This document shows, piece by piece, positions 50,964-53,729 of a stretch of 64,000 bases of DNA (position 1 is the stretch's first letter; every line of letters starts with the position of its first letter). The position numbers and the translations under genes are program-made. The notes beneath the pieces are model-generated. The model saw only the letters and a list, made by a program, of their open reading frames with translations, was not told the origin of the DNA and ran no database searches. Origin of the DNA: Escherichia coli (lineage in GTDB: Bacteria > Pseudomonadota > Gammaproteobacteria > Enterobacterales > Enterobacteriaceae); assembly GCF_003334255.1 (NCBI RefSeq), contig NZ_QOWU01000004.1; one strand, given 5' to 3'.

Positions 50964-53162
50964 ATGTCGACTCCTGACAATCACGGCAAGAAAGCCCCTC
51001 AATTTGCTGCGTTCAAACCGCTAACCACGGTACAGAACGCCAACGACTGTTGCTGCGACGGCGCATGTTCCAGCACGCCAACTCTCTCTGAAAACGTCTC
51101 CGGCACCCGCTATAGCTGGAAAGTCAGCGGCATGGACTGCGCCGCCTGTGCGCGCAAGGTAGAAAATGCCGTGCGCCAGCTTGCAGGCGTGAATCAGGTG
51201 CAGGTGTTGTTCGCCACCGAAAAACTGGTGGTCGATGCCGACAATGACATTCGTGCACAAGTTGAATCTGCGCTGCAAAAAGCAGGCTATTCCCTGCGCG
51301 ATGAACAGGCCGCCGAAGAACCGCAAGCATCACGCCTGAAAGAGAATCTGCCGCTGATTACGCTAATCGTGATGATGGCAATCAGCTGGGGTCTGGAGCA
51401 GTTCAATCATCCGTTCGGGCAACTGGCGTTTATCGCGACCACGCTGGTTGGGCTGTACCCGATTGCTCGTCAGGCATTACGGTTGATCAAATCCGGCAGC
51501 TACTTCGCCATTGAAACCTTAATGAGCGTAGCCGCTATTGGTGCACTGTTTATTGGCGCAACGGCTGAAGCTGCGATGGTGTTGCTGCTGTTTTTGATTG
51601 GTGAACGACTGGAAGGCTGGGCCGCCAGCCGCGCGCGTCAGGGCGTTAGCGCGTTAATGGCGCTGAAACCAGAAACCGCCACGCGCCTGCGTAAGGGTGA
51701 GCGGGAAGAGGTGGCGATTAACAGCCTGCGCCCTGGCGATGTGATTGAAGTCGCCGCAGGTGGGCGTTTGCCTGCCGACGGTAAACTGCTCTCACCGTTT
51801 GCCAGTTTTGATGAAAGCGCCCTGACCGGCGAATCCATTCCGGTGGAGCGCGCAACGGGCGATAAAGTCCCTGCTGGTGCCACCAGCGTAGACCGTCTGG
51901 TGACGTTGGAAGTGCTGTCAGAACCGGGAGCCAGCGCCATTGACCGGATTCTGAAACTGATCGAAGAAGCCGAAGAGCGTCGCGCTCCCATTGAGCGGTT
52001 TATCGACCGTTTCAGCCGTATCTATACGCCCGCGATTATGGCCGTCGCTCTGCTGGTGACGCTGGTGCCACCGCTGCTGTTTGCCGCCAGCTGGCAGGAG
52101 TGGATTTATAAAGGGCTGACGCTGCTGCTGATTGGCTGCCCGTGTGCGTTAGTTATCTCAACGCCTGCGGCGATTACCTCCGGGCTGGCGGCGGCAGCGC
52201 GTCGTGGGGCGTTGATTAAAGGCGGAGCGGCGCTGGAACAGCTGGGTCGTGTTACTCAGGTGGCGTTTGATAAAACCGGTACGCTGACCGTCGGTAAACC
52301 GCGCGTTACCGCGATTCATCCGGCAACGGGTATTAGTGAATCTGAACTGCTGACACTGGCGGCGGCGGTCGAGCAAGGCGCGACGCATCCACTGGCGCAA
52401 GCCATCGTACGCGAAGCACAGGTTGCTGAACTCGCCATTCCCACCGCCGAATCACAGCGGGCGCTGGTCGGGTCTGGCATTGAAGCGCAGGTTAACGGTG
52501 AGCGCGTATTGATTTGCGCTGCCGGGAAACATCCCGCTGATGCATTTACTGGTTTAATTAACGAACTGGAAAGCGCCGGGCAAACGGTAGTGCTGGTAGT
52601 ACGTAACGATGACGTGCTTGGTGTCATTGCGTTACAGGATACCCTGCGCGCCGATGCTGCAACTGCCATCAGTGAACTGAACGCGCTGGGCGTCAAAGGG
52701 GTGATCCTCACCGGCGATAATCCACGCGCAGCGGCGGCAATTGCCGGGGAGCTGGGGCTGGAGTTTAAAGCGGGCCTGTTGCCGGAAGATAAAGTCAAAG
52801 CGGTGACCGAGCTGAATCAACATGCGCCGCTGGCGATGGTCGGTGACGGTATTAACGACGCGCCAGCGATGAAAGCTGCCGCCATCGGGATTGCAATGGG
52901 TAGCGGCACAGACGTGGCGCTGGAAACCGCCGACGCAGCATTAACCCATAACCACCTGCGCGGCCTGGTGCAAATGATTGAACTGGCACGCGCCACTCAC
53001 GCCAATATCCGCCAGAACATCACTATTGCGCTGGGGCTGAAAGGGATCTTCCTCGTCACCACGCTGTTAGGGATGACCGGGTTGTGGCTGGCAGTGCTGG
53101 CAGATACGGGGGCGACGGTGCTGGTGACAGCGAATGCGTTAAGATTGTTGCGCAGGAGATAA
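50964..53162 (+). CDS. zntA: Zn(II)/Cd(II)/Pb(II)-translocating P-type ATPase
   Basis: 732-aa ORF with CCCDGAC and GMDCAAC metal-binding motifs, CPC motif and DKTGTLT phosphorylation site. Confidence 0.97.
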   Translation: MSTPDNHGKKAPQFAAFKPLTTVQNANDCCCDGACSSTPTLSENVSGTRYSWKVSGMDCAACARKVENAVRQLAGVNQVQVLFATEKLVVDADNDIRAQVESALQKAGYSLRDEQAAEEPQASRLKENLPLITLIVMMAISWGLEQFNHPFGQLAFIATTLVGLYPIARQALRLIKSGSYFAIETLMSVAAIGALFIGATAEAAMVLLLFLIGERLEGWAASRARQGVSALMALKPETATRLRKGEREEVAINSLRPGDVIEVAAGGRLPADGKLLSPFASFDESALTGESIPVERATGDKVPAGATSVDRLVTLEVLSEPGASAIDRILKLIEEAEERRAPIERFIDRFSRIYTPAIMAVALLVTLVPPLLFAASWQEWIYKGLTLLLIGCPCALVISTPAAITSGLAAAARRGALIKGGAALEQLGRVTQVAFDKTGTLTVGKPRVTAIHPATGISESELLTLAAAVEQGATHPLAQAIVREAQVAELAIPTAESQRALVGSGIEAQVNGERVLICAAGKHPADAFTGLINELESAGQTVVLVVRNDDVLGVIALQDTLRADAATAISELNALGVKGVILTGDNPRAAAAIAGELGLEFKAGLLPEDKVKAVTELNQHAPLAMVGDGINDAPAMKAAAIGIAMGSGTDVALETADAALTHNHLRGLVQMIELARATHANIRQNITIALGLKGIFLVTTLLGMTGLWLAVLADTGATVLVTANALRLLRRR

Positions 53163-53262
53163 GGCAAACCGATCGCAACATTGAGCGCGATCGGTCCCCT
53201 CGCCCCTCTGGGGAGAGGGTTAGGGTGAGGGGAAAAGGCGGCATCGAAGCCAATCAGCCCCT
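53163..53262. repeat. GC-rich intergenic palindromic repeat (box C-like; family name uncertain)
   Basis: CCGATCGC-N8-GCGATCGG hairpin then CCCCTCTGGGGAGAGGGTTAGGGTGAGGGG; lies between convergent zntA and tusA. Confidence 0.4.
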
Positions 53263-53263
53263 A

Positions 53264-53509
53264 TCAACCGCCTTTACGAATCAAATAACGATAAGGCAGT
53301 CCATCCGTCTCTTTAGCAACCAGTTCGTGTTCCATAAAGGTACAAAACCCAGGAATATCGCGGGTAGTGGCCGGATCGTCGGCGATAATCAGCAACGTTT
53401 CGCCAGGCTGCATATTGCGCACGGTTTTGCGCACCATCATCACCGGTTCCGGGCAGCGCAGGCCAAGCGCGTCGAGTGTGTGGTCAGGGCTGGAAAAGAG
53501 ATCGGTCAT
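53264..53509 (-). CDS. tusA: sulfur carrier protein TusA
   Basis: 81-aa ORF with the conserved [11 protein letters not shown] motif. Confidence 0.93.
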
Positions 53510-53729
53510 TTTCTTCTCATCACTTAAAAAAACGGCGCTAGTTTACGCCCTGTGAGTCCGTAAGCAAACTAGGTTAACGATTGCGTGAAAATTAACCATT
53601 GCATTGTCAACGTAAAGCAGTATCATGCGGCGGCTCGAAAAAAGGGTAAGCACGTTATTATGTTAAGGTAACAGACGTGTCGTACGTATTGGGTTCCCTC
53701 ACCCCAATGGTTAATCAAAAAGGTACAAT

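Follow-up and report, generated by a model that had tools for sequence, protein, structure and literature searches.

GC-rich imperfect palindromes that lie between genes and are dispersed in Escherichia coli K-12 have been described under several names. BoxC was catalogued by Bachellier, Clement and Hofnung in 1999; a length of 56 bp and a number of 32 copies are cited for it in E. coli. According to Holder et al. (PMC4666352), the BoxC of the 1990s is the PIT element of Hoyne et al. 2000 and also their own TMECO motif, of which they counted 3,610 copies in 262 proteobacterial genomes and none in Salmonella; for Enterobacter asburiae LF7a they give 143 copies. The same authors cite Hoyne and Maher 2002 for the statement that PIT elements have neither promoter nor terminator activity. 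For the group named HPG1, Kaplan et al. raised a role as terminator, as a possibility only (PMC5100583). REP sequences and BIMEs fill the same niche, as palindromes rich in GC that lie in 3' UTRs where genes converge, but have no sequence similarity to BoxC. REP stems protect the upstream mRNA from 3' exonucleases.

Here we consider the spacer between zntA and tusA. Positions are those of the window, the 64-kb stretch of E. coli DNA that was analysed, and equal NC_000913.3 positions minus 3,555,487, a conversion taken from the RefSeq MG1655 gene positions; MG1655 records are 100% identical to the window over 501 nt around the spacer repeat (BLAST). In the ORF list, zntA (50964-53162, + strand; NC_000913.3 3,606,451-3,608,649), with its stop codon TAA at 53160-53162, and tusA (53264-53509, - strand; RefSeq MG1655 3,608,751-3,608,996) converge on a 101-nt spacer, 53163-53263, in which the RefSeq MG1655 annotation has no feature. 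The 36-mer CCCTCGCCCCTCTGGGGAGAGGGTTAGGGTGAGGGG within it (53197-53232, + strand) is an exact match to the motif CCCTCNCCC-N3-6-GGGNGAGGG-N3-GGGNGAGGG[G/T/C/-] of Holder et al. 2015, and the only one in the 64-kb window, against none in 100 shuffles. It consists of block 1, CCCTCGCCC (53197-53205), a loop CTCTG (53206-53210), block 2, GGGAGAGGG (53211-53219), a loop TTA (53220-53222), and block 3, GGGTGAGGG (53223-53231), with a final G at 53232, all on the + strand. Folded as DNA with Watson-Crick pairs only, this core reaches -12.1 kcal/mol. The 30-mer CCCCTCTGGGGAGAGGGTTAGGGTGAGGGG singled out in the original prediction occurs once in the window, at 53203-53232, and had no match in 100 dinucleotide shuffles.

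This copy is BoxC, and it is already in the literature and hence known, so that the earlier guess of the box C family was right. In Table 1 of Holder et al. 2015 it is TMECO no. 16 ('A mm', that is type A with one mismatch, sense +), at 3,608,684-3,608,719, which is 53197-53232 exactly, and the sequences are identical (PMC4666352). Kaplan et al. 2016 enter it in their Table 1 as HPGQ no. 40 (group HPG1), with its midpoint at 3,608,708, zntA 48 nt away and tusA 32 nt away (PMC5100583); site and 21-mer (GGGAGAGGGTTAGGGTGAGGG) are the same, and only the structural reading differs (G-quadruplex as against triplex or plain hairpin). In the core there is no difference from BoxC. What the present analysis adds is the anatomy of an adjoining hairpin, made of the repeat end and a local arm in K-12-type alleles only, the coincidence of this hairpin with a mapped tusA 3' end, and the spread of the exact core over more taxa. 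The PIT and TMECO papers, by contrast, are confined to a 34-37-nt core, and make no mention of a hairpin at the tusA 3' end in which the flank of this copy takes part.

Two open reading frames run across the spacer. One, of 65 aa (53056-53253, - strand), contains the peptide PLTLTLSPEGRGD, which is encoded by the C-rich strand of BoxC, and overlaps the end of zntA; the other, of 147 aa (53084-53527, + strand), overlaps both zntA and tusA. Given these overlaps with the coding sequences, both are spurious, as the original prediction had held in pointing to the BoxC-type peptide, and they should be disregarded.

The repeat extends beyond its core. When ten MG1655 type-A copies were aligned on their cores, about 21 nt proved to be conserved on the left (consensus cAAaAacG.GC.CGgaCGGTC, with CGGTC in 10/10 copies), and on the right a GAA followed by weak conservation to about +14, with G at +1 in all ten. 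The zntA-tusA copy fits this consensus, reading GCGATCGGTC before the core and GAAAAGG after it. We thus place the extended repeat at approximately 53176-53246 (+ strand), composed of the left flank CAACATTGAGCGCGATCGGTC, the core and the right flank GAAAAGGCGGCATCG. At about 70 bp with conserved flanks it would be longer than the 56 bp cited for BoxC.

The left flank is also most of a hairpin. This hairpin (53168-53195, both strands) has 9-nt arms, ACCGATCGC at 53168-53176 and GCGATCGGT at 53187-53195, and a loop of 10 nt, and its RNA fold reaches -14.8 kcal/mol (z = -4.7) on the + strand and -17 kcal/mol (z = -3.9) on the - strand. The original prediction had the inverted repeat right and its loop, given as 8 nt, too short. 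It had also treated the hairpin as a separate part of a composite element; that view does not hold, because the loop and right arm (53176-53196) fit the ten-copy flank consensus, and the hairpin is therefore the left end of BoxC joined to 9 nt of local DNA. Only the left arm is locus-specific, and it is present only in K-12-type alleles. A 46-nt hairpin query is single-copy per genome (median 1 place in E. coli genomes, BLAST). The K-12-type alleles examined are invariant here, so there is no covariation that would point to selection. A GCGATCG within the hairpin was considered as a cyanobacterial HIP1-type palindrome and rejected, as it belongs to the BoxC flank consensus.

An inverted-repeat search found three pairs in the spacer. 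Besides the hairpin arms, these are TCCCCTCGCCC with GGGTGAGGGGA, within the G/C-rich block, and AAAGGCGG (53234-53241, in the BoxC right flank) with CCGCCTTT (53268-53275, in the last tusA codons), which spans the tusA stop codon and folds as - strand RNA to -20.5 kcal/mol (z = -3.7). RNA of the tusA strand offers three adjacent stems (z = -3.7) and ends with the hairpin, after which comes UUGCCUUAU. RNA of the zntA strand forms the hairpin and the stem of BoxC, and neither is followed by a U tract. A 9-nt direct repeat, GATAAGGCA, also occurs at 53158-53166, across the zntA stop codon, and at 53290-53298 in tusA, 132 nt apart, and is probably due to chance.

Published transcript ends bear on what these stems do. 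In the TRS study (PMC10687069), the tusA mRNA has its 3' terminus at 53155-53166 on the - strand (peak 3,608,642-3,608,653), with the dominant position at 3,608,646, or 53159. According to Supplementary Data 3, this terminus was found by RNAtag-seq in LB in three libraries (adjusted p 7e-32, 5e-60 and 3e-24), and Supplementary Data 3 and 4 give a tusA 3' UTR of 106 nt; we checked the coordinate convention of the table on its thrL row, and the end comes from this one data set. Counted from the closing pair of the hairpin, position 53159 is 8 nt further on, and it is also past the entire BoxC. Therefore, as far as these tables go, BoxC is read through by polymerase coming from tusA. For zntA, neither the TRS tables nor those of Adams et al. 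2021 (PMC7815308) record a 3' end, so the 3'-end mapping that had been proposed as a check can be answered from published data for tusA and gives an end beyond BoxC, with none recorded for zntA. Adams et al. also have no curated Term-seq 3' end in 3,608,500-3,608,999, which is possibly a matter of low expression. Their Supplementary file 2 does list a Rho-dependent (bicyclomycin-sensitive) termination region at 3,607,955 on the - strand, about 52468 and antisense to zntA (Rho score 2.9, p = 2.8e-5). This region is 700 nt downstream, and could belong to a different antisense transcript. On the + strand, zntA itself contains a second Rho termination region, at 3,606,645 (51158).

Supplementary Data 4 of the TRS study further lists a 'nearby TSS' of Thomason et al. 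2015 at 3,608,702 on the - strand, which is 53215, in block 2 of BoxC, and which would give a 57-nt RNA up to the tusA 3' terminus. The promoter scan found no sigma-70-like promoter upstream of it, and the site may be the structured, exonuclease-resistant 5' end of a processed RNA.

Taken together, the spacer holds one copy of BoxC (about 70 bp with a 36-nt core), and we consider the following reading as a whole to be very probable: this copy most likely has no function here and is read through as part of the 106-nt tusA 3' UTR, with the stable 3' end at the hairpin. In this scenario, BoxC would be the relic of a repeat that once spread, most likely without a dedicated role at zntA-tusA, and would now merely be transcribed as part of the UTR. 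The core by itself acts neither as promoter nor as terminator. RNA polymerase coming from tusA passes BoxC, and the stable 3' end, placed by the published mapping, forms 8 nt after the hairpin built from the left segment of BoxC and the local 9-mer. Some transcription on the tusA strand would continue downstream until Rho stops it, and the hairpin would then serve as a barrier to the 3' exonucleases that follow this Rho-dependent termination, which we favour over a weak intrinsic terminator. We think that the hairpin may thus work for tusA as REP stems do for their own transcripts, by protecting the mRNA. The suggestion of an RNA stabiliser in the original prediction survives in this reduced form: for tusA only, the published end 8 nt after a hairpin that uses the left end of BoxC fits a protective or 3'-end-defining stem.

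The alternative that fares best is that the tusA 3' end at 53159 reflects genuine intrinsic termination at the hairpin 53168-53195, and not exonuclease trimming of Rho-terminated transcripts. A stem of 9-11 bp at -17 kcal/mol, with the reported 3' end 8 nt after it, which is the usual distance, speaks for this possibility, as does the alignment of the terminator stem of Rfam Hrs13, CCGACCGC...GCGGUCGGUUUUUUU, to the hairpin. The tail after the stem is UUGCCUUAU, however, with at most 3 consecutive U, and fails the scan rule of 5 T in 8; the 10-nt loop is also larger than the scan allows, and the hairpin on the - strand therefore fails the terminator scan, in keeping with the consensus scan as a whole, which found no terminator or promoter in the spacer. 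The Rho region further downstream on the same strand (PMC7815308) also speaks against this possibility. The likeness to Hrs13 (Hfq-regulated sRNA 13, RF02631) lies in its two stems, the last of them terminator-like, over 53162-53245 on the tusA strand; the first stem, though, aligns loosely, and at 19.7 bits, far below the gathering score of 52, we rejected the spacer as a member of the family. Among the 4,227 Rfam models searched at permissive thresholds, none matched the spacer at its gathering score, and the sub-threshold matches (Hrs13, Pab91 and Antizyme_FSE only) were at chance level. We regard intrinsic termination as a tentative reading that is rather unlikely, and support for the hairpin as a terminator is only indirect and concerns tusA alone.

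The preferred reading, of a largely passive BoxC copy beside a protective hairpin, should also be seen against the variation of the locus. In about 16% of E. coli genomes, a BIME with two REPs lies between zntA and BoxC, and the left arm of the hairpin is missing; strains MS20645 and GmF046 are of this BIME type. This estimate comes from the hairpin query, which was covered to at least 80% in 4,571 of 5,425 genomes; the others match from query position 21, or 53175. The BIME-type alleles have ACCGGTTTCAAGCAGC in place of the left arm ACCGATCGC, read ...ACCGGTTTCAAGCAGCAACATTGAGCGCGATCGGTC after the BIME and before BoxC, and share their sequence with K-12 from 53175 onward. The REP consensus, such as GCCGGATGCGGCGTGAACGCCTTATCCGGCCTAC in inverted pairs, is absent from the spacer of the window, as the K-12 spacer is without REP, and occurs only in loci L001, L003, L005, L141, L143 and L145.

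There are at least four types of allele at zntA-tusA. The first is the K-12 type, often with C>T in block 1. The second has the BIME and a BoxC with point substitutions in block 1 (L001, L141), and the third has the BIME and a BoxC that lacks one G block (L003, L005, L143, L145). The fourth is divergent, with a 102-aa hypothetical ORF, a BIME and the left flank of BoxC without its core (L002). In that strain, 2017C-4173W12, the 102-aa ORF is WP_000385056.1, at 433-741 on the - strand, and TusA ends in KSG as against KGG. Because the 21-nt left flank of BoxC is kept, the fourth type is more likely to represent a partial deletion than an empty site, judging from sequence.

Similar changes are seen at other copies. 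At aaeR-tldD in strain NQ3, 12 nt are lost, which is exactly one block, so that loss of one G block (8 or 12 nt) is found at two loci, zntA-tusA and aaeR-tldD, and turns the three-block element into a plain hairpin. These losses look like slippage between the direct GGGNGAGGG repeats, and the two tandem G blocks would make the DNA element prone to such deletions, giving rise to strain-to-strain polymorphism at the locus. At tauD-hemB, about one third of E. coli genomes have a non-homologous spacer that is free of BoxC and carries a conventional GCCGGGTT...AACCCGGC hairpin (LF82, L146, compared with L127). The LF82 allele is not a precise excision, as the whole spacer is different, and no clean empty site that would define the ends of BoxC was found at zntA-tusA (L002), tauD-hemB or aaeR-tldD. 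In one strain, O9:H10 Res13 (L147), 51 nt are inserted at tauD-hemB immediately to the left of the core, and they include a second stretch resembling the BoxC left flank (GCGAGCACGGACAGTC). As for spacers beyond E. coli, contigs encoding the exact K-12 TusA gave E. coli-type alleles only. The categories 'TMECO mutated or missing' of Holder et al. describe the same pattern genome-wide, and TMECO loci vary more than control spacers (PMC4666352).

This excess of variation is one of the reasons to consider that non-B DNA, either a triplex (Holder, Hoyne) or a switch between G-quadruplex and hairpin (Kaplan), stalls replication or transcription at BoxC, and so regulates the neighbours or raises local variation. 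By CD and NMR, a triplex is formed in vitro by oligonucleotides that have exactly the sequence type of this copy, 'type A mm' (Holder et al., PMC4666352), HPG1 oligonucleotides show CD signatures of G4 or hairpin (Kaplan et al., PMC5100583), and zntA-tusA is itself polymorphic, through presence or absence of the BIME, block deletions and loss of the core. Yet in duplex DNA Holder et al. did not see the triplex, their in vivo DMS footprinting gave no protection, and they found no link to gene class, distance or orientation (PMC4666352). Slippage between two direct G blocks explains the variability without any structure-specific function, and the polymorphism of the neighbouring BIME is not obviously due to BoxC. 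We therefore see a regulatory or mutagenic non-B structure as unlikely.

That the spacer holds a dispersed multi-copy repeat, and not a single-copy element as would have contradicted the original prediction, is clear from its copy number. With the 101-nt spacer as the query, BLAST found 83,855 places in 5,426 complete E. coli genomes. The median number for a genome is 17, one MG1655 record has 19, and BoxC was multi-copy in every genome searched. Nine other MG1655 copies were fetched, and 9/9 are intergenic; with the present one included, 6/10 lie between convergent genes.

The spread is also much wider than the enterobacteria to which the repeat had been assigned, an assignment that fails on the exact core in many other phyla and on its absence from Salmonella as given by Holder et al. 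(PMC4666352). In a scan that took a single genome for each species, the exact 22-mer GGGAGAGGGTTAGGGTGAGGGG was found at 120 loci or more, which is a lower bound on its spread. Among the matches listed are Alphaproteobacteria (Bradyrhizobium, Boseaceae, Mesorhizobium, Asticcacaulis, Methylovirgula), Betaproteobacteria (Mitsuaria, Sideroxyarcus), Gammaproteobacteria (Pseudomonas, with at least 30 copies in one strain, Methylophaga, Methylomonas), and, from other groups, Archangium, Geobacteraceae, Thermodesulfobacteriota, a Desulfotomaculum, Chloroflexi, Elusimicrobia and one archaeal MAG. Many of these genomes are MAGs, in which single matches could be contamination; several taxa, however, have multiple copies with flanks of their own. 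In nearly all of the matches listed, the 22-mer is preceded by CCCCTC[G/T]CCCC and a loop of 3-7 nt, and flanks are common within a lineage only. For instance, and again among the matches listed, Pseudomonas sp. dw_612 has about 25 copies with the left flank cgatgtagctc.aagaacacctcggtcag, and the Boseaceae copies have the right flank tc[g/t]cgcgacg. Non-proteobacterial assemblies are thus matched here in addition to the proteobacterial genomes of the earlier survey.

Among plasmid records, 494 also contain BoxC-like matches, and among phage records almost none do. One match of 37 nt (87% identity) is identical on plasmids of 30-120 kb from Aeromonas, Klebsiella, Pseudomonas aeruginosa and E. 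coli, which suggests that a BoxC copy is carried along by a mobile module that these plasmids share; Holder et al. reported no association of the motif with plasmids (PMC4666352). The records of the Campylobacter phages A18a (MG065686.1) and A11a (MG065691.1) have three BoxC places each, the best of them 100% identical over 45 nt, including flanks of the E. coli zntA-tusA type. These places look more like E. coli DNA that is present in the assemblies than like a repeat carried by the phages.

That the core is identical in distant phyla points to some constraint on it, and counts against the absence of function that we propose for BoxC at zntA-tusA, which is a conclusion drawn from negative results. 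It could be that the exact 22-mer with its matching C block is the recognition site of a putative sequence-specific factor, such as a transposase of single-stranded DNA or a binding protein, by which BoxC would be spread or maintained, given that it occurs, with flanks particular to each lineage, in Alpha-, Beta-, Gamma- and Deltaproteobacteria, Myxococcota, Thermodesulfobacteriota, Desulfotomaculum, Chloroflexi, Elusimicrobia and plasmids, and that in the BIME-less K-12-type lineage the end of one copy was co-opted, with the 9-nt local arm, as the tusA 3'-end hairpin. We hold this combined scenario to be doubtful, with a low probability as a whole.

The weakest alternative is the one first proposed, that BoxC and the hairpin together act as an intrinsic terminator in both directions, for zntA and for tusA. 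It could draw on the position between convergent genes, as for the MG1655 copies above and for 6/16 HPG1 copies (Kaplan et al., PMC5100583), on strong stems on both strands, and on an outer repeat, AAAAGGCGG...CCGCCTTTT/A, with an A tract and a short T tract at its sides, but it is very improbable, as on both strands the BoxC stem lacks a U run behind it (AAAAGG on the +, within ...GAGGGGAAAAGG, and ACCGAU on the -, within ...GAGGGGACCGAU), the scan has no match in the spacer, the tusA 3' end given in the TRS tables lies beyond BoxC, PIT elements are cited as lacking terminator activity (Hoyne and Maher 2002), a signal of Rho-dependent read-through lies downstream on the tusA strand (PMC7815308), and the Adams 2021 and TRS tables record no zntA 3' end.

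From the perspective of annotation, any 'terminator' assigned to this spacer should rest on the hairpin 53168-53195 and not on the BoxC core. The end of a dispersed repeat and 9 nt of local DNA together form the stem at which a housekeeping mRNA, that of tusA, ends, an example of how repeats provide raw material for 3'-end structures.
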